Of a stretch of 64,000 bases of DNA, positions 56-61,849 are shown in pieces; position 1 is the first letter of the stretch, and every line of letters starts with the position of its first letter. The DNA comes from a virus (lineage: Duplodnaviria; Caudoviricetes), in IMG/VR virus record IMGVR_UViG_3300009716_000731, positions 64,001-128,000 of that record; one strand, given 5' to 3'. The position numbers and the translations under genes are program-made. The notes beneath the pieces were generated by a model that was given only the letters and a program-made list of their open reading frames with translations, was not told the origin of the DNA and ran no database searches.

Positions 56-223
56 CTAAGAAGAAGTAATAACGTAAACTAGAACCTTACCGTGTTCTTT
101 TATAAATTTAAGCTCACCGTGAAATCCTAAGCTTTTAGCTTTAGTTGAGTATTTATCATATAAGTCATCAAACTTACTTTCAAACACTTTTACCTTTTCA
201 ATTCCTAACTTTTTTAATATCAT
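56..223 (-). CDS. small hypothetical protein (55 aa, MILKKLGIEK...)
   Basis: Read manually; ATG overlaps the TGA stop of 220..891 (ATGA coupling); below ORF-track cutoff. Confidence 0.6.
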   Translation of the reverse strand: MILKKLGIEKVKVFESKFDDLYDKYSTKAKSLGFHGELKFIKEHGKVLVYVITSS

Positions 224-891
224 TCTTTAAGAGGTATTCTTGGATCAACATCAAAATTATCATTGATATACTCTTTTAGTTCATTTTCTATAAAATGTTC
301 AGGTACAATTTCACTATCCGGTATTTGTGCCATTTTATTACTAATAAAATTTGTAAAGTCGTTAAGAACTTCTGGCTTAATTGCATCAATCAATCTATCT
401 GAAACTACAAATGCTCTTGAGAATCTATCTTTTAGAGGAACCTGACCTTCCGGTAACATCATATAAGTTTCAACAGATTTTTTTAGAAAGTCAGCATATT
501 TTGATTGTGGATTTAGATAATCAAAAATAGTATCAAATACTCTATGAGCTAGTCTTGAAGAACCAAATATGGTTCCGACCACAGCTAATATAGGAAAAAA
601 TGGAGCTAGTGATAAAGGAACAGCAGTTGGTATTATAGAAAATATATTCTTTTTGAGATTAGTTCTTTTCTTAGCCACGATAGCATCCTTAAAAATAGCT
701 TTAAGAATACCAAAAGTAAAGTTTTCACCTTTAGAATGAAGATAAGTAGCTAAGTGACCTTGTTTAGATAAAGCTACTTGTCTTTTTAATTCTTGTTTAT
801 CGGTAACACCTATACTTTTTAAGTAGTTAGTGATATTCTTATCATATTTTTCTAAGATTAAGAATTCATTATAATTTTTTATTTTATCCAT
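220..891 (-). CDS. hypothetical protein with N-terminal tag (MDKIKNYNEFLILE) and central hydrophobic segment
   Basis: ORF track; tag shared with many ORFs in window. Confidence 0.7.
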   Translation of the reverse strand: MDKIKNYNEFLILEKYDKNITNYLKSIGVTDKQELKRQVALSKQGHLATYLHSKGENFTFGILKAIFKDAIVAKKRTNLKKNIFSIIPTAVPLSLAPFFPILAVVGTIFGSSRLAHRVFDTIFDYLNPQSKYADFLKKSVETYMMLPEGQVPLKDRFSRAFVVSDRLIDAIKPEVLNDFTNFISNKMAQIPDSEIVPEHFIENELKEYINDNFDVDPRIPLKE

Positions 892-1804
892 ATTTCTCGT
901 AGTATTTAATTATTGTTTCTTTTGCTTTATCTGAAAGTAATTCCATAGTCATTTCTATGTTTTTAGCATTTTCTCTCCATTTTATAGAACCTGACTTTTC
1001 ATCATTATGGATTCCATTCATATAATCTATTCTTTCTTCCCAAGATTCTTTACCATCAATAATATCAAATGGTATTCCTTCACCGTCTATTTCAGGATAT
1101 TTAGAACAAGCTATGTACCACTTTTTACTAGGACTTCTTTCTTTTTTAGTCCAAGTTAATTTTAGTTTATCATACTTATTATCTTTAGGTAGTATTCTAA
1201 ATAATAAAGACATTTTATTCCACATAGAATAACCATCGTGTGATTTTGAACACCATTCAGTATTTTTTGCAGTTTCTGCTGATGCAGTAAAGTTTATAGG
1301 AATTAAAATATCGACTTTATCATCACTAAAAACAATATCATATTTAGCTTCTTCTGTTTGTATTTTATATTCTTCTTGTATTTTAGACATATGACCTTCA
1401 AATTCATATAATGATTTGAATTTTAATATATCATTTTCTAATGTTTTATTTAATTGACCTCCTAAGTAAAATGACCCTTTTTTAACTTTACTTTGATACC
1501 AGCCAGTTGAGAATATAAATAATTTGAAATTTAGATCAGAATCAAAATATCTATCAAATTCTTCTTCTTTTTCAATTTCATAGTAAGTATCAGCTTTCAT
1601 TTTTTTATACATACTTATAAGCCATTTAGTATATTTACCTGGTTTAGAAAATTCTTTTTTTCTAACTGAAGTAGGATCTAAATTAACTAACTTATAGAAT
1701 ATTTTCTTATCTAAGTCTGGGTACCATTTTTTTCTAATTTCCTCACTTCCGATACTTTTTTCTAAAAGCAATCCTGAAAAATCATCAAATCTTAAAATTT
1801 CCAT
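884..1804 (-). CDS. hypothetical protein with N-terminal tag (MEILRFDDF..LLLE), TxWC motif
   Basis: ORF track 884..1888; start moved to ATG at 1804, which removes the overlap with the topoisomerase gene and lies downstream of a TTATATATA box. Confidence 0.65.
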   Translation of the reverse strand: MEILRFDDFSGLLLEKSIGSEEIRKKWYPDLDKKIFYKLVNLDPTSVRKKEFSKPGKYTKWLISMYKKMKADTYYEIEKEEEFDRYFDSDLNFKLFIFSTGWYQSKVKKGSFYLGGQLNKTLENDILKFKSLYEFEGHMSKIQEEYKIQTEEAKYDIVFSDDKVDILIPINFTASAETAKNTEWCSKSHDGYSMWNKMSLLFRILPKDNKYDKLKLTWTKKERSPSKKWYIACSKYPEIDGEGIPFDIIDGKESWEERIDYMNGIHNDEKSGSIKWRENAKNIEMTMELLSDKAKETIIKYYEKYG

Positions 1805-1841
1805 ATAAAAACAAAGAATAGTTTTTACTATATATAAAATT

Positions 1842-4483: not shown

Positions 4484-5078
4484 TATTGCGTGTTTAGGAT
4501 TTTTTTGTTTAGGTATTCTTTTAACTAACTTGTATAATAAAATTATGTACAAGAGAGAATCTGATAAGATATTAAAAGAGAGAAATTCATTCTTTTCTAA
4601 GGTTTTAGAAAAAATCTATTCTAATGAGGTTCAATTTAAGGATAGAATAAATAATTCTGTTACGTTAACAACGTCAATTGAAGGAACTGGTTTTATTGAT
4701 ATTGTTTATATTATGGATAATAGACAAGACGTTGCTATTTTTAGAAATGGTAAGTGTATTTATACAACCGATGGTATTGATGAAAATATTGTTGATGAAT
4801 TGATAACTACTATTAATATCTATTTCAAGTCAGAGATAAATGATGTTATAAGTGTTTTAGGTATGATATTTTATAAACCTACATTTGAATCAAAATTTGG
4901 AATTAAGTTATCTGACTTAAAAGCAATGTATAATTTCGATGAAGAGTTTGAAAATAAAGCTAAGCAAAAAAGTGTTAAGTCTTATAATATAGATGAAATC
5001 TTGGACAAAATTAGTGCTCAAGGTATTCAAAGCTTAACTTTAGAAGAGAAAAAGTTTTTAGATAACTATAATGGATGA
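4473..5078 (+). CDS. membrane-anchored protein with C-terminal DUF6576-like motif
   Basis: N-terminal hydrophobic helix; ends IDEILDKISAQGIQSLTLEEKKFLD. Confidence 0.65.
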   Translation: MVFSIACLGFFCLGILLTNLYNKIMYKRESDKILKERNSFFSKVLEKIYSNEVQFKDRINNSVTLTTSIEGTGFIDIVYIMDNRQDVAIFRNGKCIYTTDGIDENIVDELITTINIYFKSEINDVISVLGMIFYKPTFESKFGIKLSDLKAMYNFDEEFENKAKQKSVKSYNIDEILDKISAQGIQSLTLEEKKFLDNYNG

Positions 5079-5373
5079 TATTAATACCGTAAGTCAATTT
5101 GTTATAAAAGATTATAGAACTATACAAGGTACGATAAATATCATCTTTGAGATAGATAATAACTACTTTTATATTGAAGATGATTTTGAAAAAATAAAAG
5201 ATGTTGATAAGATGCCGGTTTATATAAAAAAAGACTGGTATAAGTATAATAAAAAAGAATTAACACTTGAAGTTATTAATTCTCATATTTCATTCTCTAA
5301 AGAATTAGAAGATGATGATTTATTTAGAAACTTGGTATCTATACGAAGAGATTATATTATTGATAAACTATAA
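5071..5373 (+). CDS. hypothetical protein with C-terminal RxxxIxxL tag
   Basis: ORF track; ends RRDYIIDKL. Confidence 0.65.
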   Translation: MDDINTVSQFVIKDYRTIQGTINIIFEIDNNYFYIEDDFEKIKDVDKMPVYIKKDWYKYNKKELTLEVINSHISFSKELEDDDLFRNLVSIRRDYIIDKL

Positions 5374-5403
5374 AAAAACCACTCAATAGAGTGGTTTTAT
5401 TTT
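5372..5403. terminator. bidirectional intrinsic terminator
   Basis: AAAACCACTC-aata-GAGTGGTTTT hairpin between convergent genes. Confidence 0.75.
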
Positions 5404-5954
5404 TATAGTGGAAGTTCTTCTTCTCCTTCTTCTGTTTGACCTTGTGCCTGACCTTGACCTTGTGCCTGACCTTGACCTTGTGCCTGACCTTGACCTTGTG
5501 CTTGACCTTGTGCAGGTGCTTGAGTCTGTGGTTCTTCAAATTCATCATCACCTTGTGCTTGACCTTCTGGTTGAGCTTGCATTTGTGGTTGAGCTTGCAT
5601 TTGTGGTTGAGCTTGCGGTTCAGTTTGTACTTGTACTTGACCTTGTCCTTGAGTTTGAGCTTGAGTTTGACCACCCATTATTGCACCACCTGGAATTTTA
5701 TCAACATCAACAAAGTTAAGTGTTACATATTTAATTATTTCCTCAGCAATATCTACATCACCAAAAAATTGACGTAAATTTTTACCTGTGGTGTCTTTTA
5801 CTTTTTTTACATAAGCATTAATAAGAGATTGAGGAATATCAATCATAGTTTTTACTTTATAAATATCATTTACTTGTAATACTGATTCTCTTATTATTTC
5901 TTCTCTATTTTTCTTAATACGAAAAGATTCAAATTTTTTAACGTGTTTCATCAT
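5403..5954 (-). CDS. tagged protein (MMKHVKKFESF) with Gln/Gly-rich low-complexity acidic tail
   Basis: ORF track; late-type promoter box at 5974-5982. Confidence 0.75.
   Translation of the reverse strand: MMKHVKKFESFRIKKNREEIIRESVLQVNDIYKVKTMIDIPQSLINAYVKKVKDTTGKNLRQFFGDVDIAEEIIKYVTLNFVDVDKIPGGAIMGGQTQAQTQGQGQVQVQTEPQAQPQMQAQPQMQAQPEGQAQGDDEFEEPQTQAPAQGQAQGQGQAQGQGQAQGQGQAQGQTEEGEEELPL
5437..5616. repeat. coding tandem repeats: 18-bp units encoding GQGQAQ (about 4 copies) and QPQMQA (2-3 copies)
   Basis: tgaccttgtgcctgacct and ggttgagcttgcatttgt repeats visible. Confidence 0.85.
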
Positions 5955-7504: not shown

Positions 7505-7786
7505 ATGGCAACTATAACTAAAACAAAAACAAAATCAAAGGTACAAAGTATTCTTTCTAAACCTTATCGTCTTATATTGCATAATGATGATTATAATACT
7601 TTTTCACATGTTATTGAATCATTAGTTAAAATTTGTAAACATGATTATACTCAGGCTGAACAATGTGCTAATATAATTCATTTTAATGGTAAATGTGATG
7701 TTAAATATGGAGATTATGAAACTATAAGTGACATGTTAGATAAGTTAAGAAATCTTGGTTTATGTGCGACCATGGAGTCTAACTAA
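7505..7786 (+). CDS. clpS: ATP-dependent Clp protease adaptor ClpS
   Basis: LILHNDDYNTFSHVI...AEQCANIIHFNGKC motif. Confidence 0.92.
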   Translation: MATITKTKTKSKVQSILSKPYRLILHNDDYNTFSHVIESLVKICKHDYTQAEQCANIIHFNGKCDVKYGDYETISDMLDKLRNLGLCATMESN

Positions 7787-11905: not shown

Positions 11906-12505
11906 ATTAGATTACAAGATGAGTTCGATCAAATACAATCAGAAAACTCTGAATTTGATATATCAAAGCACTTAGCAAGACCTGAGGATTTACCTGATTT
12001 AGGTGAAATTGAGCTTTATGATTACGATGCTGATTTAACTGTTTCGATGCAACAATCAATGGGTGTATTGGAGTCGTTAGTTGATTTATATTTAAGTGAT
12101 ATACCTAAACTTAAAGATCACAATTATATAAAAAATAAAATGCGTGAAGATGCTACTGTTTATGCAGAAGCGCTTTTTTTAGCTAAAATGACTAGAAAAA
12201 ACTTTTTATCACAATTAAAACAAGTTGATAATGGTGATAATGCTGCTAGAATGCACGAGGTTGTCAATCAAACAATTGGTCAGATTAGAGAGAATAGTAA
12301 ATTCCTTTTAACACAAAGAACTGAACTTGAAAAGTTTTATAAGACTTTAAGAAAAGACTTAGGTTATAATGAAATTGAGAATCCAGAAGTTAAGAAAGCA
12401 GAAGAACAACAAAATTCAGAAGAAAGTAATGATGGAATGGTTATGGATAATAGAAAGCTTAATGATTTAATTAAGAACGCTATGGTTAAAAAAGACGAGA
12501 AATAA
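11882..12505 (+). CDS. terS: terminase small subunit (T4 gp16-like)
   Basis: ARMHEVVNQTI resembles gp16 PRxxEV motif; helical; C-terminal DNRKLNDLIK; divergent from terL; ATG at 11882. Confidence 0.7.
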   Translation: MSKQEQERIRLQDEFDQIQSENSEFDISKHLARPEDLPDLGEIELYDYDADLTVSMQQSMGVLESLVDLYLSDIPKLKDHNYIKNKMREDATVYAEALFLAKMTRKNFLSQLKQVDNGDNAARMHEVVNQTIGQIRENSKFLLTQRTELEKFYKTLRKDLGYNEIENPEVKKAEEQQNSEESNDGMVMDNRKLNDLIKNAMVKKDEK

Positions 12506-12506
12506 T

Positions 12507-12617
12507 ATGCCACTACCGCATTATCCCAATCCACAGGGATTTAATTGGAGTCCTAAGTTCAAGAAAATACTTAGAATTAAGAAGATTAAGAGAATTATAG
12601 AGAAACTTGAAAAATAA
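12507..12617 (+). CDS. 36-aa peptide: tail-tube-like N-terminus plus RxxKIxxII tag
   Basis: MPLPHYPNPQGFNWSPKFKKILRIKKIKRIIEKLEK*, starts 1 nt after terS stop; not in ORF track. Confidence 0.6.
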   Translation: MPLPHYPNPQGFNWSPKFKKILRIKKIKRIIEKLEK

Positions 12618-13054
12618 TATTTATGTCAATTAATTTATAGTTTATCAAATTGTCACTTATTATATTTTCAGAGTCCATATCTATATTTATTCTGTTTGTT
12701 CTGGATTGATATCCTACTGTATTGGAAGGAGTTTCACAAAAAAATATCAAGTATAGTATATTCATTATTCATGAATGATATAAATGGTATAAAGTTATCT
12801 CTTATATCAAACCAGTCAAATACTTCAGTTCTGCCTGAAAATATACTTTTATTACCTTTAGTTATTTTTAACTTATAGATATTGCTAGTAATGTTATTTA
12901 TTGATTTAGCCTTTATCTTAGCTTCTGATGTTCCCCAGCTATTAACATCTATGTTAAAATCTTCGTCTATTAAGCTAGCGAGTAAATCACTAAATAATGA
13001 TTGAAGATCTTTTTCAGTTTCTGTATTTTCGTTAAAATTTCTTAAATAAATCAT
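12595..13054 (-). CDS. tagged protein (MIYLRNFNEN), apparently frameshifted in a T7 run near 12741
   Basis: As given stops at 12734; removing one T continues the frame to a stop at 12595; resembles 15067..15567 in layout. Confidence 0.55.
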
Positions 13055-15066: not shown

Positions 15067-15567
15067 TTACATAATTTTTATTATAAAGTAAATGCTATCA
15101 ACTTTTTTACTATCTTTTAACTCTTCAAAATCTTCTAATTTTATTTTAGTTATTTCTTTATCTTCTGTAAATTTAATTAGATGCTCAACATCATCATAAG
15201 TTTTCTCAATTAACTGTATAATTAAACTTATAAAGTCTTTTACTTCGGATATTTTTATTGATTCACCATCTTGTCTTGTAATTTTAACTTTATAAATAGT
15301 TTTATATTTACCTCTATTGATATCCTCTTCATCTTTATAAACATCACTTTCATTAAAAATAACATTTATGTTATAAACATCATCATCTGATTTATATCTA
15401 ACATTATTTTTGATAAGTTTAGACATTTCTAAATCTGGGAAATCATCTGATAATTGAGGTTTTAACTCTAAAAGTAAATTAGCTAGATCTAGAACATCTT
15501 GAGTATCAAGATCTTGATCTTCCTTAATTTTACCGGAGAATTTCTCGAATGCTTTTATAATTTTCAT
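15067..15567 (-). CDS. tagged hypothetical protein (MKIIKAFEKF)
   Basis: ORF track; TTATATATA box upstream; terminator 15040-15067 downstream. Confidence 0.7.
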   Translation of the reverse strand: MKIIKAFEKFSGKIKEDQDLDTQDVLDLANLLLELKPQLSDDFPDLEMSKLIKNNVRYKSDDDVYNINVIFNESDVYKDEEDINRGKYKTIYKVKITRQDGESIKISEVKDFISLIIQLIEKTYDDVEHLIKFTEDKEITKIKLEDFEELKDSKKVDSIYFIIKIM

Positions 15568-15595: not shown

Positions 15596-16141
15596 TTACT
15601 CTGCTAATTTATCTAAAAATTCTTTTTCTTCTTTTGTTAGTGAATTAATACCACTCTCATTTATTTTATCTAATATACTATCTAAATCTAAAGTATCTAA
15701 AGTTTGCGTCTCACTTTGTATTTTATTTTGAAAATTATTTTTCATATAAAAAGTGTCATTCTCTACTACTATATTATTTTCTATGAATCTATCTAGGCTT
15801 TCCAATCTTATTGTAGGAAATCCATTAACAAATCTTAAGTATTTAGCACAAGTTAAAAGATCTTTTTTAATCTTTTTTGGTTTTACTGGTTCCATCTTTG
15901 TAAGCATTTTTAGTTCTTTGGAGGTATAACCTTTTACTCCATTACCTTGTACAAGTATAATGTCTTTGTTTCCGTAAAATAACACTCTTCCGGTTTTAGT
16001 CTCTACCCATAAATAATCAGTAACATCTTTCATCCCATAAAGAATGCCAAAATCTAAACCATATTCAAGTGATATTGAAAATAGTTGTAAATCATTTACA
16101 CGAAAACTAATACATATAATGTCTTTTGCGTTATAAGCCAT
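15596..16141 (-). CDS. hypothetical protein with C-terminal DUF6576-like motif
   Basis: Ends LDSILDKINESGINSLTKEEKEFLD; near-consensus host-type promoter upstream (TTG-N20-TACTTTTA). Confidence 0.7.
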   Translation of the reverse strand: MAYNAKDIICISFRVNDLQLFSISLEYGLDFGILYGMKDVTDYLWVETKTGRVLFYGNKDIILVQGNGVKGYTSKELKMLTKMEPVKPKKIKKDLLTCAKYLRFVNGFPTIRLESLDRFIENNIVVENDTFYMKNNFQNKIQSETQTLDTLDLDSILDKINESGINSLTKEEKEFLDKLAE

Positions 16142-16234: not shown

Positions 16235-18799
16235 ATGAGATATTTAGATAAAAGATCTGACTTTCTTTCGCAAAGACAACATATAAAAACAGATAAAATT
16301 GAGTCTATTTATGAAGCACAATCAGGTGCTGGTCCTTTTGCTAATGATGTTGGTTGGAATGATTCCTTATTGGGTAGATTGATAAATCATATGATTAGAA
16401 AAGCTAGAATAGCAGCTAAAGTTCCAAGAATAAAAAATCTTATAGAGAGATTAAATGCTGCTTTCGAAGAGTTAGTTGGACAGTCTACCGTATTTAAGAC
16501 TAGTTCTGAAACACAAACAATAGCTATGCAAGCTCAAGTTGCATCTTTTTATTTTGAATTAATAAAAGCAGTTGAATCTGGTGAACCTGTATCTATATTA
16601 AAGAAACTAACAGATGAAGCAATAATAAAAACAAAAAGTTTGCCAGATTTTGATAAAAAGGATATTTTATTAGAGGAATTAAAGAAGTTTAGAGAATTTT
16701 TGGATCAATTTAAGGATGGTGAAGAATCTATAACTGGTGAAGATGATTCAAATGATGATGTTTCTCAGTATGGGATTATGGTTAAAAATCTACAAGCTTT
16801 AGCTCTTATTTTAGCAAACTATAAAAAAGTTAATTTAGGTGTTACGACACAATCGAAATTAATACCAGAATTAATTAAGGATAAAGAATATATGCTTGAT
16901 GATGATGTTGTTAAGTTAGTAGATCCTACAAATGTTGGAACACCAGAACAACCGAAAGTTACTGTTATTTATAGAGATAAGGTTACAAAAACATATAAGC
17001 CTAATTCTAAACCAGTTGTTATTCCTGCTGCTAAGTTAAAAGAATTAACAAAAGAAGCAGCAGCTCCTATCAGAAGTAATTCATATGGTAATGTCGGAGG
17101 TTCTAATATTGATAGAAATAATGTTACTGGTACAGAAGATCATTTAACACAAGCTTTTTCAAAGCTTAAAAAAGATATAGAGGTTTTAATATCAGCTAAA
17201 GAAAAAGGAATATCAGTTGATAATAATTTTATTAATGATATTTTAACTAATTCAAAGAATACAAAGTCTAAAGATATTATAAAGTCTTTATATACTGAGA
17301 TTAATAGATATTTAGTTGGTGATAAGAAAGCTACAATACAAGAAAGGGATGCTTTATATAAAGAAAGTATTGATATTCTTTCTGATAAAAATAAACTTGC
17401 TATTATTGCTGAGAAAATTGCAAGATTTTCTAAAAGAGCAATTCAGTTTGATGGTCAGAATATGTATGGTGGGTTAGGTGACTTTGGTGCTAATCTAAAG
17501 TCATTTGTAGATACTATTAAGCAAATAAAATCGTTCAAACTAAGTACTATTAGTGAGAGTGTTTTATCATATTCTTTGTTTTTAGAGCAAGTTACTACAT
17601 TAGAAGGAGATTCTAAAAAAATATTAAACTTCTTTAACGAAACTTGTGTTGAGGTTAGAAAATTTACACTAAGTAAGGAAGATTTAGAGAAAGCTAGAAA
17701 GGAATATGAAGAAAAAAGCAAAGATGAATCTGAAGTTATTATGTCTATGGACCCTATTATAGAAATAATGAATCTATTCATAAAATCTTATAAGCTTTAT
17801 ACAGTTAAAACAATTACTAAGAGAACAGAGAATGTTGATACTAATACTTTATCAGAATATACGCCTTTAGGTTCTGCTGATGATACTGGTAGAAAAGGTC
17901 CTTATAGAAATAATAAGCTATTTGATATGTGGGAAGAAGCTGTAAATAATATTAGAAAGAATAGAAAATATCAAGTTTTCTTTACAGATCAAGCTAGTCT
18001 TAGATTACCGTCCGTTCCGGATCCAAATCCTTATAACTCAGAAGACTGGAAAGTTAGACCAAAAGCAGGTAGACAATTTAGTAAATTTATTAATGATGTT
18101 ATGGATGGTGATAAATTATATAAATCATCTGATAGTAGAGGTTCTGTTGCTAGATTTTTAGATGAATATTTTGGTGATGGTTCTACTACAAAAGAACAAC
18201 AAGGTAGAATAGATAGTACTGGATTACAAGATAATGCTCAGATAGAAGAGCAAATTAATAATAACGCCATTAATCTTAAGATGATTAAAAGTGAGAATAC
18301 TGATGGTAACTATGTTAATACTTTTTTTACCATTACTTTTGATAAGTTAGATAAAGATGGAAAAGAAACTGGAAAAGGTCAATATTCTTTCTATGTTGGA
18401 GATAACGAATTTAATTTAATGTTTAATACTGGGATTAGTTTATTTAGTGATATGCTTACCTCTATTGGTCCTAAGAGAAGTATTGATAAAGGAGAAATGG
18501 ATAATTTGTCTAATAGTAGAGGTGATATGTACTTTACTCGTATTAAAGATATTAGAAATATTCTAGCAGGAAACACTCTTGATTTAGGCTATGTTCAGAT
18601 CGCAAAAGAGTCTAGTCTTAGAAATCAAAAAATAAAATTAACTGGATTATATAGATTAGTCTATGAGAAAGAACCAGGTAAGCTTTATAGATTAGAAGGT
18701 GATGATTTAACAAAATGGAATAATATTTTAAGAAGTAAAAATATACCTAGTATTAAATCTAAAGTAGATATAAAAAATCCTGAAATAAAGAAAGTATAA
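16235..18799 (+). CDS. large tagged hypothetical protein, probable virion or internal head protein
   Basis: 854 aa; MRYLDKRSDFL...IYEA; internal tag-like SYSLFLE; upstream of sheath. Confidence 0.7.
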   Translation: MRYLDKRSDFLSQRQHIKTDKIESIYEAQSGAGPFANDVGWNDSLLGRLINHMIRKARIAAKVPRIKNLIERLNAAFEELVGQSTVFKTSSETQTIAMQAQVASFYFELIKAVESGEPVSILKKLTDEAIIKTKSLPDFDKKDILLEELKKFREFLDQFKDGEESITGEDDSNDDVSQYGIMVKNLQALALILANYKKVNLGVTTQSKLIPELIKDKEYMLDDDVVKLVDPTNVGTPEQPKVTVIYRDKVTKTYKPNSKPVVIPAAKLKELTKEAAAPIRSNSYGNVGGSNIDRNNVTGTEDHLTQAFSKLKKDIEVLISAKEKGISVDNNFINDILTNSKNTKSKDIIKSLYTEINRYLVGDKKATIQERDALYKESIDILSDKNKLAIIAEKIARFSKRAIQFDGQNMYGGLGDFGANLKSFVDTIKQIKSFKLSTISESVLSYSLFLEQVTTLEGDSKKILNFFNETCVEVRKFTLSKEDLEKARKEYEEKSKDESEVIMSMDPIIEIMNLFIKSYKLYTVKTITKRTENVDTNTLSEYTPLGSADDTGRKGPYRNNKLFDMWEEAVNNIRKNRKYQVFFTDQASLRLPSVPDPNPYNSEDWKVRPKAGRQFSKFINDVMDGDKLYKSSDSRGSVARFLDEYFGDGSTTKEQQGRIDSTGLQDNAQIEEQINNNAINLKMIKSENTDGNYVNTFFTITFDKLDKDGKETGKGQYSFYVGDNEFNLMFNTGISLFSDMLTSIGPKRSIDKGEMDNLSNSRGDMYFTRIKDIRNILAGNTLDLGYVQIAKESSLRNQKIKLTGLYRLVYEKEPGKLYRLEGDDLTKWNNILRSKNIPSIKSKVDIKNPEIKKV

Positions 18800-19359
18800 T
18801 GAATCATATAAAAAGTTATAAATTATTTTTAGAAGAGGCTGAGTTTGATGTTTTAAGCTCGGATTCTGCTGACGTTAAGGTTGCAAAAGAAAAAATGCAA
18901 ACCATGAAAACTTATATAACTGACTATAAGAATAAAAAACCACTAATCGATAAAATTTATACTGAAATTAAAGATCCTAAAAAAATTGAAGATGAGTTAA
19001 AAAAAGTTTTAGGGCAAACTGATGTTATGAATGGTAAAGATAGAAATCCATTTTTGGTTGAATACACTCACGTTGCAAAACTAAATGCTGATGTTACACA
19101 AATGGGTAAAGATAACCTAAATGATAAAATAAAATTGGATGATTTTCAGCAGGAATTAAGATATGCTAAAGAACAAACGGTTAAAGATGTAGTTAATAAA
19201 AAAATAGCAGATGTAAATAAAAGAATGTTAGATAGAACTAAGAATATACAAACATTAAGTGATCAGTATAGACAAAGTTTGAAAGAACATACCGATAAAA
19301 TGGGCAAGATTGAAAAAGAAATGTCCGATAATATTAAAAAAATATCTAATGTAATCTAA
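18799..19359 (+). CDS. tagged coiled-coil protein (MNHIKSYKLFLEE)
   Basis: ORF track, coupled to previous gene. Confidence 0.7.
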   Translation: MNHIKSYKLFLEEAEFDVLSSDSADVKVAKEKMQTMKTYITDYKNKKPLIDKIYTEIKDPKKIEDELKKVLGQTDVMNGKDRNPFLVEYTHVAKLNADVTQMGKDNLNDKIKLDDFQQELRYAKEQTVKDVVNKKIADVNKRMLDRTKNIQTLSDQYRQSLKEHTDKMGKIEKEMSDNIKKISNVI

Positions 19360-43257: not shown

Positions 43258-43740
43258 ATGAATAAAATAAAAGTAGCTGATATGGGAATCAAGAAAGTTA
43301 TAAAATACTATCTTCTTGGTGAATCCTTGAAGGAAATAGAAGCAAATAGAATTCTTGATAAGTTATCAAAGAATAAACAAATATCTGATAAAGAAAAGAG
43401 ATTTTTAGATTTATATAGATATACATCTAATAATGAAGAACCTAAAGATTTAATGTATTTATCAAAGAATGTTGCTTGTGAACATGTTAAATCACTTTTA
43501 CAAAAAGGATATAGTATTTTTTGTGATTTGCATGATAGAGATGGTCTAATTGGTCTACCTATCATTGATATTGATAACGAACATCAAGAAGAAGCATGTG
43601 TTATTTATATGAAAGGTGATGAAACTCATAAATTATATGATAGGTACTTATATAATTTGATATATAATAATAAGTTAAAAAGATATTCACTTCAAGAGCA
43701 AGATGAATACTTTGAAGAAATAGAACATAAAAATGATTAA
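43258..43740 (+). CDS. hypothetical protein with DUF6576-like motif near N-terminus
   Basis: ANRILDKLSKNKQISDKEKRFLD. Confidence 0.65.
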   Translation: MNKIKVADMGIKKVIKYYLLGESLKEIEANRILDKLSKNKQISDKEKRFLDLYRYTSNNEEPKDLMYLSKNVACEHVKSLLQKGYSIFCDLHDRDGLIGLPIIDIDNEHQEEACVIYMKGDETHKLYDRYLYNLIYNNKLKRYSLQEQDEYFEEIEHKND

Positions 43741-44008
43741 AAAATTCAACGATTTTATATTAGAAGTTTCAGGAACAGAATTAGTTGGTCCAATTGGTCC
43801 TGCTTATGGTGAAACTAAAACACTTAATAAAACTATATCTGCTTTTGATACAGATGTTATTTACAGTGAATTAGGTGGTAGAATATACACAATTGATGAA
43901 TATAATCAAATGTATCAAGACTATCTTAAATTAGGTGGTTCACCTTTAGATGGTTATAATAAAGAAAATTTAGAAAAAGTTATTGTTTATTTACAAGATA
44001 ATAACTAA
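43733..44008 (+). CDS. small tagged protein (MIKKFNDFILE)
   Basis: ORF track. Confidence 0.7.
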   Translation: MIKKFNDFILEVSGTELVGPIGPAYGETKTLNKTISAFDTDVIYSELGGRIYTIDEYNQMYQDYLKLGGSPLDGYNKENLEKVIVYLQDNN

Positions 44009-52738: not shown

Positions 52739-53067
52739 TATTCTATATATGTTATTTTCATATTTAATGATTTAGCTAATTCTATTTCGGCTAATACACC
52801 AGTAGATTTATCCCATCCATCTAATTTATAGACGAACATTTCATCACATTTGTATAAGAATGTTTCGCAAAAATTTTTCCAAAACTCCCAGTCTCCTGGC
52901 ATTTCTTTATAGTTTAATAGAGTGTGTCCATAAACTATTGGTGACATAACTACCATTCCGTTTGCAACTAATTCTGCAACTTTTTTACAAGTTAAATCAT
53001 ATCTATTTATTACAACACTTGGATCTTTATCCGAGTAAAGTGAAGCAAAGTAAAACATATTATTCAA
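52738..53067 (-). CDS. DUF1937 / nucleoside 2-deoxyribosyltransferase-like protein
   Basis: YFASLYS, SPIVYGH, GWDKSTGVLAEIELA. Confidence 0.8.
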   Translation of the reverse strand: MNNMFYFASLYSDKDPSVVINRYDLTCKKVAELVANGMVVMSPIVYGHTLLNYKEMPGDWEFWKNFCETFLYKCDEMFVYKLDGWDKSTGVLAEIELAKSLNMKITYIE

Positions 53068-53518
53068 TTCCTAATTCTCTAAGTTTAACATTTCTTTTAT
53101 GAGCATCATCAACAATAAGTTGAACCATTTGTCTATCTACCCATTTATTTTGCATAAATTGAATTACACCACTTATTCTTTGTTGATCTGATGATATTTT
53201 TCTATCATCGGTGGTGAATCCAGTGGCTTTAACTTTAAGCTGTTTTTCGGAGACTTCTACAACTTCAAGTTCATATGTTCCGCTAAATGAATATGACTCT
53301 TTAGTTCCTTGACCATAAATCAATGAATAGTTTGGATAAATTACTTTATCACCTGGTTCAATAGCAATTAAATCATTTTTAATAGACTCTGCTTTTGTTT
53401 TAGCTTTACTAAGTTCATTATTTTGGTTTATCAAATCTAAATTATTAGTAAAAAGTTTATAGTTAAGTACGATGCTTACTAGTAATGCAACCGATAACGA
53501 AATTATTGCTGTAATCAT
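53060..53518 (-). CDS. membrane-anchored protein with C-terminal RxxKLxxL tag
   Basis: N-terminal TM; ends KRNVKLRELGIE. Confidence 0.65.
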   Translation of the reverse strand: MITAIISLSVALLVSIVLNYKLFTNNLDLINQNNELSKAKTKAESIKNDLIAIEPGDKVIYPNYSLIYGQGTKESYSFSGTYELEVVEVSEKQLKVKATGFTTDDRKISSDQQRISGVIQFMQNKWVDRQMVQLIVDDAHKRNVKLRELGIE

Positions 53519-53910: not shown

Positions 53911-55626
53911 ATGAGATGGATAAAAAAACGTGACTTATTTTTAAGCGAAGCTAAAATTAAGGATTTAATTCTTCCTATACAAGCAAAGCAAGTTAAAGAA
54001 TATTGGGGTGAAAAATATTTAGATTATGAAGAAGTTACACCTACTGATAAAATTGTTCAAGGAGTTTGGAAATTATCAGAGGAAGATAAGAATAAAGTTT
54101 TAAGTAAGTGGGCTGAGTGTGATATGGATCAACTATTTAAGTTATTCCAAGATCTACCAGAACAATTTGGAAATGTACTTAATAAATCAATTAGTAGTGA
54201 TGCGTATAGAGAAGACAACTTCTCAAAAGATGAATATCAAAGAATTTTTAATGATTTTGATATTAGACAACCTAAGTTAGATCAAATTTTTACAATGTTT
54301 GGTCCAGTTTTTAGAAAATTGTCTCTTACTGATACAATGGCGGATAGTATTATTGCAAAAGATGAGAATAATCGTCCTTTAAGAGATGAGAATGGTAATA
54401 TGATTAGAACAATTAAAGCAAAAGGTGATTTAGCTTTTAGTAATAATATGATCAATATCAACTCTTTCCTTAGTGATTATAATGATTTGGTTGATAGATG
54501 TGTTGATGCAAAGATAGAAGGTTGGAAAGTAAGTGATAAAGTAACAGCTAACTTCTCTAATGATAGAAATATATCTCAATTTATAAACTTTGCTTCTACA
54601 AATAAAAACACCGATTATCAATTAGATTTTGAGATATTTAACAGAGACATTTATCTAAAGATAAATCACAATCCTAAAGATATATTAAATATGTCTATTT
54701 CTAAATTTTATGCTTCATGTCAGCATTTATATACTGGTGCTTATAGAAGACAAGTATTATCTAATGTGTTTGATCCAAATAGTATTCCTGCTTTCTTAAC
54801 ATTTGAAACTCCAATATTTTGGAAAGGTGAAAAGATTTCAGATCAATTACCTTTATCAAGGATGATTATTAGAAATATTAAGCAGTTTGATGTAAATGCA
54901 GAGACTAAATTATACTTTGATAGAGCTTATGAGGATAGATTGCAGAGTGTTTTTGAAGAAATAGTTACAAAATATACAGGAATGGTTTCTACAGCACAAA
55001 GAGGAGATAAATACTATTTCTCACCTGATGTTGATTTTGGTGATGATGATTTAAGCCCATCATATCAAGATAAGCTTTCCTTAGAGAGAGTTTTAAGAAT
55101 TGGTAAAAATATTAAATCACTTACACTAAGTCAATTAACTTCTGGTCAAAGATATATCGTTGATCCTAATGCTAAGATAAAAGAGTTGATTGTTGAAACA
55201 TCTGATATTCCAGATTCTTTACTAAATCTAAACTTAAACTTGGATTGGATTAAATTTAAGTATTTAAGTATTAATACTCTTAATAATTTTGCTAATATTA
55301 AGACAGATAGTATTGCATTTGATAAATGTAAATTTGGTAATAATATTTTAGAAGATATGAACTCTATAAATCCAAATATTAAAAAGCTTCAAATTGTTAG
55401 CTGTGATAATACTACTTCTTTAGATTTCTCAATATTTGAAAATTTAGAAGAACTACAAGTTATTTATACATTAGATAGCTATCAAGATCTTGCTAATTTA
55501 TCTGTTAGTAAAAATCTTAAAAAGATGGTAATATCTGGTGACTTAGTAACTAAAGAAAGTAAACCTATAATTGGTTCATTAAAATCAAAAGGTATAAAAA
55601 TTGAAATTGTTGGTCCAGTAATATGA
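53911..55626 (+). CDS. tagged protein (MRWIKKRDLFLSE) with C-terminal leucine-rich-repeat-like region
   Basis: NIKSLTL, KIKELIV, NIKKLQI, NLEELQV, NLKKMVI; late box 53878-53886. Confidence 0.7.
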   Translation: MRWIKKRDLFLSEAKIKDLILPIQAKQVKEYWGEKYLDYEEVTPTDKIVQGVWKLSEEDKNKVLSKWAECDMDQLFKLFQDLPEQFGNVLNKSISSDAYREDNFSKDEYQRIFNDFDIRQPKLDQIFTMFGPVFRKLSLTDTMADSIIAKDENNRPLRDENGNMIRTIKAKGDLAFSNNMININSFLSDYNDLVDRCVDAKIEGWKVSDKVTANFSNDRNISQFINFASTNKNTDYQLDFEIFNRDIYLKINHNPKDILNMSISKFYASCQHLYTGAYRRQVLSNVFDPNSIPAFLTFETPIFWKGEKISDQLPLSRMIIRNIKQFDVNAETKLYFDRAYEDRLQSVFEEIVTKYTGMVSTAQRGDKYYFSPDVDFGDDDLSPSYQDKLSLERVLRIGKNIKSLTLSQLTSGQRYIVDPNAKIKELIVETSDIPDSLLNLNLNLDWIKFKYLSINTLNNFANIKTDSIAFDKCKFGNNILEDMNSINPNIKKLQIVSCDNTTSLDFSIFENLEELQVIYTLDSYQDLANLSVSKNLKKMVISGDLVTKESKPIIGSLKSKGIKIEIVGPVI

Positions 55627-57398
55627 AAAATTTGAAATATATAAAATTATTTGAAGCTTTTGATGCTTCGATTGTTAATAAAGTATTAGGATATATATCG
55701 TCTAAAGATAAAAAAATATTTTTAGATAAAATAAAAAGTATATGTAAAACATTTGATGTTCCTGAATCAAAATTATCTGATGATCTTTTTAGATATTTAC
55801 CTTATAATGCTGCTATATCCTATAACGGTGAAGCAGTTGCTGATGTTCCATGTGATGCTGTTGGTGAGTTTATTACTGGTGAGAGATGTAAAGATGGTAA
55901 AGTTAAAAGACCTTGGGGTAAAGGATTTAGATATGTTGATTGTTCTGCTTGTAATGGTACAGGTATTAAAAAACAAAAGTCAAATTTAAGATTATTAAAA
56001 TTTTGGTTTGATAAAGATGGTAAATTTATAGCAACAACTGCGGTTGATGGTGTTTATCGTCAGAATAATGCAGGTTCTTCTGCTGGTGCTGCTACGGTTG
56101 CATTTTCTCCTAATATTGATGATTATGAAGTAGTAAAAAGAATTCCTAAATCACAAATAGGTAGCTTAAATATAGGTGATATTATTGCAGTAGATTTAAT
56201 TAATGGATGGAATAATAGAACATGGTCACAAATTGTTAGTTATGTTATGAAGGTTTCCACTTGGGCAGGACAAAAAACTTTTGCTTTACAAAATACTGCA
56301 AGTTATTATAATAATTATCCTAGAGATACTTATGGTTGGGGTTCAATAGCTAGTGGATATTGGCAGATGAGTCACTCAAAGGTAGCAAATATTAGTTTAT
56401 TAAAACCTAAAGCTGGTGCTACAAGAAGAAGAAAAGATCCTCTTGGATATAATACAAGATTTGACTTTGATAGATTTGTTACTATGCCATCATCTATTTT
56501 ATCTTCTGTTAAAGATGCTAATTTTGCTATTATTTTTGATTATGCTAAGTTTATTAGTTTAGTGAATAGTAATAGCTATAAGTTAAAAGGTGATATAAAA
56601 GATGAAAGAACAGAAGCTAAGAAAGATACTTTAGCTTTTATGAAAGATGTAGATATTAAGAAAGCAAATATCGAAAGATATATGAAGTTAATAGCGGATA
56701 GAATGAAGATTCAAAATATATCCGATATATCTAATTTGACAAAATTATCTACTAAACTTATTTGTGGTGATTTTGCTGCTTATCGATTAAATTATAATAC
56801 AAGTGCTGCTATTGATAGACTTAATACAATATCTTCTTATTTGTTTAAGGTGATAAAAATGTATAAGAAGGGAGAAAGAGCTAATAATTTAGAAGAAGTT
56901 ATGGTTAGCTATGATTTCAAAAATAGTATAGAAAGAGTTAACTATGAAATTTCTGAGGGACTAAAGATTGCAAGTAGTGCTAGAACCTTCTATATTGATA
57001 GATTAGATAGAGTTAGAGAGTATATTAATAGTGAAGATGATGAAGAACTTAAAACTAAAGCTCTTAAGGTTTTAAGTAATATTGATAGACTTTCTAAAGA
57101 GATTAATAGCTATATTAGTATCTTTGAAGTAAGAAATTTAGAAGATGTTGAGTTATTATATCAAGAATTATCAATGGTTTTTGATTTACTTAGATCAGAG
57201 CGTGTTGGCTTAAGAACTCTTGATGGATTCTTTGATAGAATGAGACCACAAAGCTCTTATAATGAACCTAATTATATTTGGGTAAGATTAAAAGAGAAGC
57301 GTGACTACTATGGTAATATTAATAACAACATTAATTATTTAATTAATATTTTAAGAAAAAAACAATCTTTAGCAACAAGAGAGTTTGATGAAGAATAA
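55623..57398 (+). CDS. tagged protein (MKNLKYIKLFEAF) with DnaJ-type Zn-finger-like motif
   Basis: C..CKDG...CSACNGTG. Confidence 0.7.
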   Translation: MKNLKYIKLFEAFDASIVNKVLGYISSKDKKIFLDKIKSICKTFDVPESKLSDDLFRYLPYNAAISYNGEAVADVPCDAVGEFITGERCKDGKVKRPWGKGFRYVDCSACNGTGIKKQKSNLRLLKFWFDKDGKFIATTAVDGVYRQNNAGSSAGAATVAFSPNIDDYEVVKRIPKSQIGSLNIGDIIAVDLINGWNNRTWSQIVSYVMKVSTWAGQKTFALQNTASYYNNYPRDTYGWGSIASGYWQMSHSKVANISLLKPKAGATRRRKDPLGYNTRFDFDRFVTMPSSILSSVKDANFAIIFDYAKFISLVNSNSYKLKGDIKDERTEAKKDTLAFMKDVDIKKANIERYMKLIADRMKIQNISDISNLTKLSTKLICGDFAAYRLNYNTSAAIDRLNTISSYLFKVIKMYKKGERANNLEEVMVSYDFKNSIERVNYEISEGLKIASSARTFYIDRLDRVREYINSEDDEELKTKALKVLSNIDRLSKEINSYISIFEVRNLEDVELLYQELSMVFDLLRSERVGLRTLDGFFDRMRPQSSYNEPNYIWVRLKEKRDYYGNINNNINYLINILRKKQSLATREFDEE

Positions 57399-57445: not shown

Positions 57446-58057
57446 ATGAGATATATTAGAGAATACAATACTTTCGGTTCAACTTTAATAATAGTTGACG
57501 TACAAAAATCATTCAAAAAGTTTTTTACTGTTATGTACTTAAATGAATTAAATAAGTATTGTAAACAGTTCTCAGAAGTTTATCAAATATGGGATAACCA
57601 CGTGGATGGTAAAAATGTAGATAAAGATTACTTATATGATGACAATCCTGATATTCCAGTACATAATGATTTATATAGATTTCCTAATCAAAAAGACTTA
57701 ATAGAAAAAAGATATAATTATGATGTAGATGTTGATTTCTATAAAAAAATTCTATCAAAAGAAGTTTATCAAGACGCAAAATCTAAAGAAGAAATTAATC
57801 AATTAAAAAGAGGTGACTTCTTTGAAACAAAAGAAGGAACTTACATTATCTATATTGGTAATAATCATAAATGGTATCATTTACCAAAAAAGCTTTATGA
57901 TTTATTCCAAAGACTAAGAGGTAAAGAAGTTACAATGGTTGGTGGTTCTGATTCAGAATGTTTCTTAGATGTTGAAACCGCTGCTAAAGTATTTGGTGTA
58001 AATGTTAAAAGAAACTTCAAGTTTATATACAGTGCTAATCACTGTCCTATAAAGTAG
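57446..58057 (+). CDS. tagged isochorismatase / cysteine-hydrolase-like protein
   Basis: LIIVDVQKSF, IEKRY, MVGGSDSECFLD (Asp-Lys-Cys layout). Confidence 0.65.
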   Translation: MRYIREYNTFGSTLIIVDVQKSFKKFFTVMYLNELNKYCKQFSEVYQIWDNHVDGKNVDKDYLYDDNPDIPVHNDLYRFPNQKDLIEKRYNYDVDVDFYKKILSKEVYQDAKSKEEINQLKRGDFFETKEGTYIIYIGNNHKWYHLPKKLYDLFQRLRGKEVTMVGGSDSECFLDVETAAKVFGVNVKRNFKFIYSANHCPIK

Positions 58058-59105
58058 CTGTATCTGATATAAACTTATAAAGTTTTTTCAAGTATTCTCT
58101 TCTCTTAAAGTTTTTATCAGTCATTAAAGTAGCAACATAGCAAAAATAGTAAAGTTTATCTATCAAAACATCTTTTGGTATATCACCACCCGGATATCTA
58201 AACTCTACATAATTATATCCACTAATTCTGGTTACATTGAATCCAAAATTTTTATACCCAAACTCATTCATTAGTTTCAATACATAGTTGCTTAATTCAT
58301 CTTCAGTAGATTTTATATCAGAGAAGCTGGTTGCTTTCATTATTTTGCTTGAGTCTAACTCTTTTTTAAGTACTGGTAGTATTGATTTTGTATAAAATGA
58401 CTTTTGTCTCCATTTCATATTCTTAAATGTGAAAGCAGTTTCACCATAGTCTGAAATCATTAAGATTCCTTTAATTATATTCCAATCTACTTTCTTTGTG
58501 AATCCAATATTGATATGAATACCAGTTCTTTCATTCATAAACCAATATTTTTGATTATTGTAATCTTTGTAGAAATCTTCAATTAGTTCGATAGTATCTT
58601 CTATACCAACTAAGTAAGTATTCATAGAGAATTCAATACCTCTTTTTAATGTATTGTCTAACTCAAATTTTATTTCAGAGTTCCATTTTTTGTAAAAGTT
58701 AGGAAGATTTATCTTAAAGTTTTCAATTAAGTAATCGATATTATCTGAGATCATATAAGTCATATAATCTGCTTGTAAAACTTGTATAAGTTTATTAGCA
58801 AAGCCAGTTGGATATTCATCTAAATATTCCTCAAATAGATCAATATTTTCATCAACATCTTCAAAATCTAAAGTATCAATTATTTCATCTACAAGATAAA
58901 ACATATTCTTGTTTGACTTACCTTCATCTTTAATATACTGATAAGCATTACCCTTTGCGATTTCAATAAATTTTGCAGGAGAAACTGAATCATCGCTACT
59001 TTCCATGTCATCAGTTTCAAGCTCAAATTCTAAAGCTATTGTAAAGTCATTAGAATGTAACTTAATATAATCTTTATCTTTATTATTAAACTCTAATAGT
59101 AACAT
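58047..59105 (-). CDS. putative amidoligase (COOH-NH2 ligase type 2)
   Basis: ALEFELE, D.TL..GIEF, TGIHINIG, YVEFRYPG. Confidence 0.75.
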   Translation of the reverse strand: MLLLEFNNKDKDYIKLHSNDFTIALEFELETDDMESSDDSVSPAKFIEIAKGNAYQYIKDEGKSNKNMFYLVDEIIDTLDFEDVDENIDLFEEYLDEYPTGFANKLIQVLQADYMTYMISDNIDYLIENFKINLPNFYKKWNSEIKFELDNTLKRGIEFSMNTYLVGIEDTIELIEDFYKDYNNQKYWFMNERTGIHINIGFTKKVDWNIIKGILMISDYGETAFTFKNMKWRQKSFYTKSILPVLKKELDSSKIMKATSFSDIKSTEDELSNYVLKLMNEFGYKNFGFNVTRISGYNYVEFRYPGGDIPKDVLIDKLYYFCYVATLMTDKNFKRREYLKKLYKFISDTATL

Positions 59106-59479: not shown

Positions 59480-59499
59480 GTAGATATATATATAAATTT

Positions 59500-60207: not shown

Positions 60208-60284
60208 ATCTATTTTTATTTTTATTTATATATTAAAAAATAAAAATCAATTTCTTCAATAGAATACTCAATTAAAATTAATAT

Positions 60285-61247
60285 TTACAAAAATAATTTT
60301 TTTAGTTTTCCCAATAAAGATATGCCAGATATAATTGGATCTGTTGCAGATTTTAGTATTAAATCATACTCACATACAAGATTTGATACCTCAAATAGTT
60401 TATTCACACTTTCTCTTTTCTCTTTTATACACCAATCTATAAATTGTCTTCCTAATAGATTTATCATAACATCTATTTTATCCGCACCAAAGTTATTCAT
60501 CAAAAAGTGATAAGTTTGTTCAAAATCATTTTCTTGATATAGAAAGTTATATAAGTCAAGTTTTACTTTATTTGAGATTGTATTATCTGAACTACCGATA
60601 GAACCAGTTTCTAAATAGCTCTGAACTTCAACTAAAGTTGCTCTAAAATCAGGAAATTTTTTAGTTATTATAGAAACTAAGTCTGTTTTTGGAATCTCTT
60701 TATTCTCTGCTACTAAAATATTATTATTAATTCTTTTATAAATTTCTTGTTTTAAGAATCTTTCTTCGTCAGAAGATTGACAATCAAAATTAATAGTTTT
60801 AATTCTTGATTTAAGTCCATCTGTAATCTTATTGATATGGTTTGTAGTGATAATAAATCTTACTTTGTTATTATATCTTTCAATAAAAGCTTTGAATGCA
60901 TCTTGGAAGTTTATAGACACTCTTTCAAACTCATCTAAGAAAACAAACTTAATATCAGAATCAGTATCCATCATTGGTGTAAACTTACAGAAGTCATCAA
61001 TTTCATTTCTTAAAATTTCAATAGAGGTGTCCATAGAACAGTTAAGTTCTAAGAAAGGTGTTTCTTTATGATATTTACCGACTAAAATTCTTGCTAAACT
61101 GGTTTTACCTGTTCCATAGTGACCATAGAATATATAGTGTTGATTTACACCACTCTCAAATTCTTTTCTGATCCTTGGTAAAAGTATTATATCTTCGTAG
61201 TTTTTGGGTCTCCATTTCTCCCATAATAATAATTTATTTACTGACAT
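60285..61247 (-). CDS. sliding clamp loader ATPase subunit (T4 gp44 / RFC-like)
   Basis: WEKWRP, GHYGTGKT, LDEFE, FIITTN, SR, FPDFR. Confidence 0.92.
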   Translation of the reverse strand: MSVNKLLLWEKWRPKNYEDIILLPRIRKEFESGVNQHYIFYGHYGTGKTSLARILVGKYHKETPFLELNCSMDTSIEILRNEIDDFCKFTPMMDTDSDIKFVFLDEFERVSINFQDAFKAFIERYNNKVRFIITTNHINKITDGLKSRIKTINFDCQSSDEERFLKQEIYKRINNNILVAENKEIPKTDLVSIITKKFPDFRATLVEVQSYLETGSIGSSDNTISNKVKLDLYNFLYQENDFEQTYHFLMNNFGADKIDVMINLLGRQFIDWCIKEKRESVNKLFEVSNLVCEYDLILKSATDPIISGISLLGKLKKLFL

Positions 61248-61294
61248 ATTTATCTCATTTTCTTAATGAGTATATCTAAAATTATCAAAAAAGT

Positions 61295-61849
61295 TTATAT
61301 TTCTGGATAACCAACCAAGTATTCTTCTTCTGTTGTTTCACCATCTGCTAAAGTTCTTGTGTAAATACCATCACCTAACCAATTTATCTTAGAGTTTGGA
61401 AAAATTTTCTTAACAACATTATATTCGTTTCTTTTACATCCTGTGCTTATCAAAAGTTCTGCAGGTCTTCCAGACACTTCTATCCAGAATCCTTTTTTAT
61501 GTAAAAGATTTGATAGTTGCCTCATTAGCTCTTTTCTTGCTTCTTTTGAGCCATCGTGACCCCATCCTGATATTTTATGACCGTGTGATTTTCTTGAGAA
61601 TATAACAACATCTGCATTAGGATCTCTATCTATATCAACTGCAGTCCAGAAAGTTAAATCTGGATCATTTACAACAGCATCTGGTGATGATATTCTAACG
61701 TGACCACCAAGAGGTTTATAAGCCAAATCTACAATCTCCCATATTTCTTTTTTTAGCTTAGCCCTATCTTCTATAGAAAGCTCAACCCATTGATTTTTAT
61801 CGAATAGATCAGAGAATGTAAAATCTTCAAATATTTTTAAGTATTTCAT
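61295..61849 (-). CDS. tagged hypothetical protein (MKYLKIFEDF), possibly GNAT-like
   Basis: AYKPLGG, GHDGSKEA, WIEVSG; late box 61855-61863. Confidence 0.65.
   Translation of the reverse strand: MKYLKIFEDFTFSDLFDKNQWVELSIEDRAKLKKEIWEIVDLAYKPLGGHVRISSPDAVVNDPDLTFWTAVDIDRDPNADVVIFSRKSHGHKISGWGHDGSKEARKELMRQLSNLLHKKGFWIEVSGRPAELLISTGCKRNEYNVVKKIFPNSKINWLGDGIYTRTLADGETTEEEYLVGYPEI

Follow-up and report, generated by a model that had tools for sequence, protein, structure and literature searches.

Why should many proteins that have nothing else in common begin with the same short peptide? The question is posed by a window of 64,000 nucleotides, bases 64001-128000 of one contig (IMG/VR record IMGVR_UViG_3300009716_000731), in which a first-pass annotation had listed 17 sites where otherwise unrelated open reading frames (ORFs) start with a common motif, read there as an address for loading proteins into the capsid. 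The contig is 151,253 bp long with a GC content of 27%, and because CheckV puts it at 26% completeness, the whole genome is expected to be near 0.6 Mb. Judged from its sequence, its source is an uncultured huge phage related to T4: its tail sheath protein of 1354 residues and its capsid protein are closest to those of the uncultured huge phages LR745206, LR756502 and LR756501 (630-735 kb), with farther matches in Lak phages and in jumbo phages of Flavobacteriia such as PTm1, pT24 and MA9V-2. A heuristic call gave 201 ORFs on the contig, of which 37 (about 18%, or about one gene in five) begin with M-[KR]-[YHF]-[IL]-K-x-[FY]-[EN]-x-F or a close variant. This shared start peptide, hereafter the tag, spans 10 to 13 residues and is continued by [IL]-x-E in a subset. 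The comparisons below indicate that the tag is a portable N-terminal leader under selection at the protein level, specific to one clade of huge T4-related phages. The chances appear evenly balanced that it is a capsid-targeting leader of the T4 type, extended here to about a fifth of all genes, by which dozens of proteins would be loaded into the head. Unmarked coordinates refer to the window, and those marked as genome coordinates to the whole contig.

A hidden Markov model (HMM) of the tag matched 35 of the 201 N-termini at 10 bits or more, compared with 0.05 per 201 in composition-preserving shuffles and 2 of 3211 internal windows. The motif is thus far more frequent than chance would have it, and the set is larger than the first-pass annotation reported. 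As a guard against circularity, a hold-out HMM was built from no tagged genes but the 23 that lie outside the window and was then applied to the window, where 10 of the 73 called N-termini reached 10 bits, versus 0.14 in composition-preserving shuffles and 1 of 1416 internal 24-mers; an eleventh ORF, beyond the 73 called, scored 12.1 bits (12734-13054, Table 1). With this model, 11 of the 17 listed sites scored 12 to 19 bits and two more (891 and 18799) scored 6 to 7 bits with higher-scoring orthologues, while four (1804, 16235, 53911 and 59105) stayed below 4 bits and found no support. The double occurrence reported at 31531 was recovered, the second copy being the weaker. Base composition is not the explanation, because five AT-rich phages (PTm1, pT24, MA9V-2, Lak-B5 and LR756500; 25-36% GC) gave no match at 10 bits or more among 214 ORFs.

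The motif is strictly N-terminal. In a sample of 80 related loci from IMG/VR, 92 of 1564 N-termini reached at least 10 bits, and a full-length scan at the same threshold gave 54 N-terminal matches and two nominally internal ones that start at Met (mis-called starts), so that no truly internal match was present in 422,249 residues. The bodies behind the tag are almost all unrelated, as had been claimed, since BLAST with the first 16 residues removed linked only one paralogue family and one pair. The family has five members (genome 575-1981, 42813-44387, 55134-56498, 56501-57835 and 147071-148129). Three of these carry a tag of the T4-like subtype described below, with CxxC zinc-finger repeats of the DnaJ type at the C-terminus; the start of a fourth (575-1981) resembles the tag only weakly, and the fifth (147071-148129) is untagged. 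In the CoaD-like enzyme of LR756501, residue 18 aligns with residue 4 of an untagged homologue on the contig, and the extra N-terminal residues, about 14-17 of them, are the tag; by this alignment the tag is portable between proteins.

Conservation of the tag extends across large groups of orthologues. The 203-residue protein at 57446-58057 has 1295 homologues, with the tag at the start of 117 of the best 120, and 124 homologues of the 91-residue protein at 43733-44008 keep I-K-x-aromatic-x-x-F-[ILV]-x-E. Two unrelated families (120 and 124 orthologues) both keep the tag, and in the 91-residue family the insertions and deletions among orthologues fall exactly at the junction of tag and body. 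Across orthologue groups, identical residues were encoded by different codons in a proportion of 0.209 within the tag and 0.247 within the body, a synonymous-site comparison in which no strong constraint on the tag at the DNA or RNA level was seen. Synonymous sites in the tag thus drift normally, which argues that selection acts at the level of the protein. AlphaFold gave the 203-residue protein a mean pLDDT of 84.5 overall and of 38 for residues 1-10, and modelled the tag of the 91-residue protein as a helix of residues 5-13, followed by a disordered linker (residues 12-35). In these models the tag lies outside the folded domain.

The closest known counterpart is in T4, where all internal head proteins enter the core by means of a leader and gp21 cleaves after Glu (PMC5694885). 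The T4 leader is MKTYQEFIAE (PMC8442874), in which amber-suppression genetics assigned targeting to residues 4 and 7 and processing to residues 8 and 10 (PMC9026906). This 10-mer scores 7.8 bits on the tag HMM (E 0.05 per 201 sequences) and its reverse 0.8 bits, the peptide being too short for a claim of homology. Residues K2 to E10 align with the HMM columns K-x-F-e-e-F-i-n-E, and T4 residues 4, 7, 8 and 10 all land on conserved columns of the tag. The aromatic pair has the i/i+3 spacing of T4: the anchor is F or Y in 35 of 35 seed tags (partly by construction), F follows at +3 in 23 of 35, and orthologues retain the pair as F, Y, H or W. At T4 spacing, I or L is present at +4 in 13 of the 35 tags, E at +6 in 10, and both in 8. 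These 8 are here called type B, or the T4-like subtype, and the remaining 27 type A. The two types form one family, because a model made from type A tags alone gives at least 8 bits to 5 of the 8 type B N-termini. Candidate cut sites of the form [ILV]-x-E within residues 8-20 are found in 17 of 37 tagged and 30 of 164 untagged proteins (18% background; P=0.0009), and the core of many type A tags itself reads L-F-E.

A head module of the T4 type is encoded on the contig just beyond the window, with portal, protease plus scaffold, and capsid protein all found (Table 1), and tblastn recovers capsid genes of T4-like cyanophages. The C-terminal half of the protease protein contains 11 tandem repeats of 14 residues (N-I-x-Y-S-E-Y-[IL]-A-E-N-L-D-K) with one diverged copy upstream; each tandem repeat includes the heptad Y-S-E-Y-[IL]-A-E and a gp21-type [IL]-x-E, and a Glu/His-rich acidic stretch comes after the repeats. 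The array is kept in 79 relatives, 74 of which have 12 repeats. Of the matches to [FY]-x-[EDNQ]-[FY]-[IL]-x-E in the proteome, 12 fall in the scaffold array and 7 at tag N-termini, which leaves only 3 in other places. In a profile comparison with permuted columns as the null, the T4 leader resembles the scaffold repeat (z=4.0, P=0.0012). The capsid propeptide of the contig contains Y-A-E-F and then I-N-E. Two paralogous peptidase genes directly follow the capsid gene, with small tagged genes interleaved.

Among relatives, tags and scaffold repeats are both present in LR745206 and LR756501 and both absent from PTm1, pT24 and LR756500; the tag is also missing from MA9V-2 and Lak-B5. When PTm1 and pT24 were scanned with heptad patterns for N-terminal tags that copy the different scaffold repeats of these two phages, a single isolated match came from PTm1 and none from pT24. 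The stretch aromatic-x-x-F-I-N-E-A recurs in the Chryseobacterium phage MA9V-2, at the start of two head-module proteins as part of a T4-like leader and, as W-S-E-F-I-N-E-A, in the capsid propeptide (11975-12781, 15765-16013 and 19896-21617 of the examined locus). This sharing ties the motif to head maturation in the wider lineage, and in MA9V-2, a cultured relative, the same motif is used on a small scale in the manner of T4.

The first-pass annotation had placed nearly all tagged ORFs behind a late-type promoter box or in its operon, and the association holds statistically: 23 of 37 tagged genes and 60 of 164 untagged ones have a AATATATA box no more than 80 nt upstream (P=0.005). The same box stands ahead of the genes for sheath, portal, protease and other large structural proteins. 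A different box, TATAAATA, which is seen in front of genes such as that of thymidylate synthase, is placed upstream of only 2 tagged genes. The further rule that any gene acquiring tag plus promoter becomes cargo stays conjectural. Of the 37 tagged genes, 14 lie inside operons and have no AATATATA box at 80 nt or less. Spacing between this box and the ATG falls preferentially into two ranges, 4-8 nt and 17-27 nt (for example upstream of 15567, 43184, 57446 and 61849). Because the box can stand so close to the start codon, the 4-8 nt spacing suggests leaderless or near-leaderless mRNAs for about 35 genes.

Searches of Pfam and PHROGs with the tagged proteins, which range from 73 to 632 residues across the contig, assigned almost no functions. 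The bodies with some assignment are a Toprim primase core, an NFACT-R domain, a leucine-rich repeat (LRR) protein, the DnaJ-like zinc-finger family and a weak nicotinamidase-like fold. The tagged primase core (Table 1) qualifies the earlier statement that replication genes lack the tag; it lies outside the window, begins exactly at the RNA polymerase domain without a zinc-binding domain, sits just behind an HNH endonuclease gene, and may be a fractured gene. A separate motif, R-x-x-[KQ]-[IL]-x-x-[IL], forms the C-terminus of 19 ORFs (for example 5071-5373 and 53060-53518). It never occurs together with the N-terminal tag, being present in 0 of 37 tagged and 19 of 164 untagged ORFs (P=0.03), and may be a second, separate tag.

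The capsid-targeting reading is put forward because of the aromatic pair, the I-x-E at T4 spacing in a subset, the T4-type head module, the likeness of the T4 leader to the scaffold repeat, and the promoter bias shared with structural genes. The leader would be a short amphipathic helix held away from the folded body, and its two aromatic residues, three apart, would dock the protein onto the prohead core, the presumed partner being the scaffold half of the protease-scaffold fusion. The capsid shell would then close round the core, and the gp21-like protease would cut after Glu at [IL]-x-E, dismantling the scaffold and removing the leader from those tags that have such a site. The bodies would remain in the head and be released together with the DNA when a cell is infected. 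Of these steps, the docking to the scaffold, the cleavage, the packaging and the injection are inferred.

Several findings weigh against this reading, and the capsid-loading proposal of the first-pass annotation is upheld in part, its comparison with T4 having stood the tests. About half of the tags have no candidate cut site, and the type A majority lacks a fixed I-x-E. In the profile comparison, the type A tags (27 of 35) did not resemble the scaffold repeat significantly (P=0.80), nor did all tags together (P=0.40; even less with identity-only scoring), so that the idea that every tag mimics a scaffold repeat was dropped and kept for the T4-like subtype only. The match of type B tags is itself marginal (P=0.04), in a subtype picked for those matching features, and the scaffold link is best regarded as a lead for that subtype, not as a general property of the tag. 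The co-occurrence of tags and repeats rests on one clade and is confounded by phylogeny, and the nearest cultured relatives lack the tag. The protease matches the gp21 family of Pfam (PF03420) at E 2.9e-5, under Pfam's cut-off. Enzyme-type bodies such as the primase core, NFACT-R, the nicotinamidase-like protein and, in a relative, enzymes of the CoA-pathway type are not obvious head cargo, some being of kinds expected in the cytoplasm. Tagged proteins are slightly acidic (median pI 6.0 versus 6.6), unlike the basic internal proteins of T4, and some are core genes conserved like the capsid protein rather than hypervariable.

Next in rank is another protein-docking role, which is possible but rather unlikely: the leader would dock or sort proteins to a partner other than the prohead, such as a chaperone, a protease adaptor (the tag then being a degron that times turnover), the membrane, or a replication or assembly compartment. 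The tag has the character of a linear motif that is conserved and lies outside the folded domain, it is found on enzymes and on conserved core proteins, and its type A majority is unlike the scaffold repeat, all of which suits such a signal. The genome also encodes a ClpS-like adaptor, and the C-terminal motif, which never accompanies the tag, suggests a broader system of sorting or turnover. No such partner was found, however, and the proposal leaves unexplained why the T4-like subtype agrees with T4 at each of the four mapped positions, why [ILV]-x-E is in excess directly behind the tag and why tagged genes lean toward the box of structural genes; the cross-detection that joins both subtypes into one family also speaks against it.

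That the motif is instead the visible part of a mobile expression cassette is improbable. Here a promoter box with a leaderless or short-leader start would be selected as DNA or RNA in a host not reliant on Shine-Dalgarno pairing, and the close spacing of box and ATG speaks for this explanation, the box ending within 8 nt of the ATG in 15 of 37 tagged and 20 of 164 untagged genes (P=0.00016). The K-Y-I codons themselves resemble the box, and the primase core without its zinc domain follows a homing-endonuclease gene, as though a fresh start had been supplied to it. The near-equal synonymous change in tag and body runs counter to a cassette, as do replacements that are conservative at the residue level (F/Y/H/W, I/L/V, E/N/D) and the use of both Ser codon families. 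The box-less tagged genes inside operons and the absence of the motif from equally AT-rich phages of related hosts point the same way.

Still less probable is a leader recognized by a modifying enzyme, such as a radical-SAM protein serving many precursors as a single maturase in the manner of ribosomally synthesized and post-translationally modified peptides (RiPPs). A radical-SAM gene does lie inside a run of eight small tagged genes, and a tagged gene is the direct neighbour at 3 of 4 homologous loci from three genomes. Tag density near radical-SAM genes is no higher than the genome-wide 10-18%, however; at one of the four loci no strong tag lies close by, most tagged genes are far from the radical-SAM gene, and neither a peptide-maturase family above cut-off nor a SPASM domain was seen. 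Since these neighbourhoods do not exceed the base rate, a linkage of radical-SAM genes to the tag was rejected. Chance or a compositional bias of AT-rich gene starts, to which the AT-rich codons of K, Y, I, F, N and E in a genome of 27% GC might seem to point, has a negligible probability and is rejected by the shuffles, by the five AT-rich phages and by retention of the motif in hundreds of orthologues.

Set beside known systems, the tag is most like the capsid-targeting sequence (CTS) of T4 IPII and IPIII (that of IPI is similar), a strictly N-terminal leader of about 10 residues on unrelated proteins that is removed by gp21. Both have a Lys two residues before the aromatic and a second aromatic three residues on, with [IL] at +4 and Glu at +6 in a subset of the tags, and both phages have a gp23-like capsid protein, a gp20-like portal and a gp21-like protease. 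The contig tag differs in having three or four more residues before the Lys. T4 tags a handful of small, basic, hypervariable proteins, whereas the contig phage tags about 18% of its ORFs, the products being often acidic and in some cases conserved or enzyme-like. Packaging and cleavage are established for the T4 CTS and predicted for the contig tag. The phages phiKZ, 201phi2-1 and SPN3US are likewise large, with a gp21-related protease and dozens of different head-internal proteins (about 50 head proteins) that have N-terminal propeptides, and the SPN3US paralogues gp53 and gp54 share an identical N-terminus of 15 residues (PMC5694885). Their protease cuts after Glu at S/A/G-x-E or A-x-E, which differs from the motif of the contig; no one leader is common to unrelated proteins in these phages, and SPN3US processes only 8 of its approximately 50 head proteins. 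Encapsulin cargo-loading peptides and the encapsulation peptides of bacterial microcompartments resemble the tag in being short, portable and terminal, often forming an amphipathic helix on a flexible linker, and they dock unrelated enzymes inside a protein shell. They differ in serving cellular compartments, in not being removed by a protease and in having no sequence likeness to the tag, and those of encapsulins are usually C-terminal. A literature search found no publication describing the motif of the contig.

Table 1. Coordinates of tagged ORFs in the window and of other features on the contig. Bits are hold-out HMM scores; box denotes the AATATATA box.
Coordinates (strand)	Feature	Length (aa)	Bits	Remarks
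220-891 (-)	tagged ORF, T4-like subtype	223	7.1	aromatic-x-x-F-L-I-L-E; 14.9 bits with full model; no Pfam or PHROG match
884-1804 (-)	site listed in first pass; weak		<2	no independent support; 8.9 bits only as seed member
5403-5954 (-)	tagged ORF	183	16.6	box 19 nt upstream; LR745206 orthologue retains tag
12734-13054 (-)	tagged ORF	106	12.1	length from ATG at 13054
15067-15567 (-)	tagged ORF	166	15.2	probably leaderless, because box is only 5 nt from ATG
16235-18799 (+)	site listed in first pass; unsupported	854	3.4
18799-19359 (+)	tagged ORF, T4-like subtype	186	6.2	directly upstream of tail sheath gene; LR745206 orthologue in same position, 15.2 bits
25347-25730 (+)	tagged ORF, consensus tag	127	18.2	box 23 nt upstream
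30504-30893 (-)	tagged ORF	129	14.6
30890-31531 (-)	tagged ORF	213	14.5	in-frame second copy at residues 30-38, 6.7 bits; paralogous to genome ORF 33-578, likewise tagged
31544-32122 (-)	tagged ORF, consensus tag	192	19.2	phrog_7595 (function not assigned)
38622-38858 (-)	borderline tag	78	7.4	absent from first-pass list
43733-44008 (+)	tagged ORF, clearest T4-like tag	91	16.8	K-K-F-N-D-F-I-L-E
53911-55626 (+)	site listed in first pass; unsupported	571	2.0
55623-57398 (+)	tagged ORF, tag from codon 5	591	16.8	true start may be TTG at 55632; 20.3 bits read from TTG
57446-58057 (+)	tagged ORF, highly conserved clade protein	203	12.1	weakly nicotinamidase/isochorismatase-like fold, E 0.016; only weak Foldseek matches
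58047-59105 (-)	site listed in first pass as weak; unsupported	352	3.6
61295-61849 (-)	tagged ORF, first gene of clamp-loader operon	184	19.2	box 5 nt from ATG; protein atlas look-up without usable match
60285-61247	clamp loader
7505-7786 (+)	ClpS-like protein	93		phrog_27368 'ATP-dependent protease', 8.7e-8
23584-25263 (+)	large homing endonuclease gene			phrog_3339, 3e-109; directly after tail sheath gene
genome 9095-9994	radical-SAM gene			subfamily not assignable
genome 9095-12230	radical-SAM gene with NadR-like and PnuC-like NAD-salvage genes
genome 22408-22998	tagged DnaG-type primase core (Toprim)	196		phrog_849, 1.7e-32
genome 131507-133267	portal (gp20-like)			phrog_213, 9e-59
genome 136827-139016	head maturation protease fused to scaffold	729		phrog_207, 8.5e-31; equals window 72827-75016, outside the window
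genome 139091-140785	gp23-like capsid protein (major head protein)			phrog_138, 2.4e-28
genome 141527-142906	peptidase			phrog_4191
genome 143547-144818	peptidase			phrog_4191, paralogue of the preceding

Some other genes of the contig deserve mention. The ClpS-like protein belongs to a class of known role, ClpS being an N-end-rule adaptor, and here its gene is carried by a phage in which many proteins begin with one common peptide. The radical-SAM gene stands beside the NadR-like and PnuC-like NAD-salvage genes, the whole region lying in the run of eight small tagged genes; these NAD-salvage genes may share their metabolism with the nicotinamidase-like tagged protein at 57446. In addition to the large homing endonuclease gene, other HNH and GIY-YIG genes are scattered over the contig.

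The broadest form of the capsid-targeting reading, in which a clade of phages of approximately 0.5-0.7 Mb loads about a hundred proteins, enzymes included, into the head by means of one T4-derived leader, is offered tentatively and is rather less likely than not. If it is true, roughly a fifth of the proteome would arrive in the new host cell pre-made and in modular form, and any gene could join the cargo by gaining about 12 codons. Capsid targeting would then be an old and scalable address system of the T4 superfamily, enlarged in huge phages until it carries dozens to hundreds of proteins, rather than a curiosity of T4 confined to a few anti-restriction proteins. Such a system would help to explain the many unassigned genes of huge phages and their quick takeover of the cell. 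It would also allow virion cargo to be predicted from metagenomes by a simple sequence rule, and the engineering of phage capsids would gain a second set of packaging tags taken from nature.

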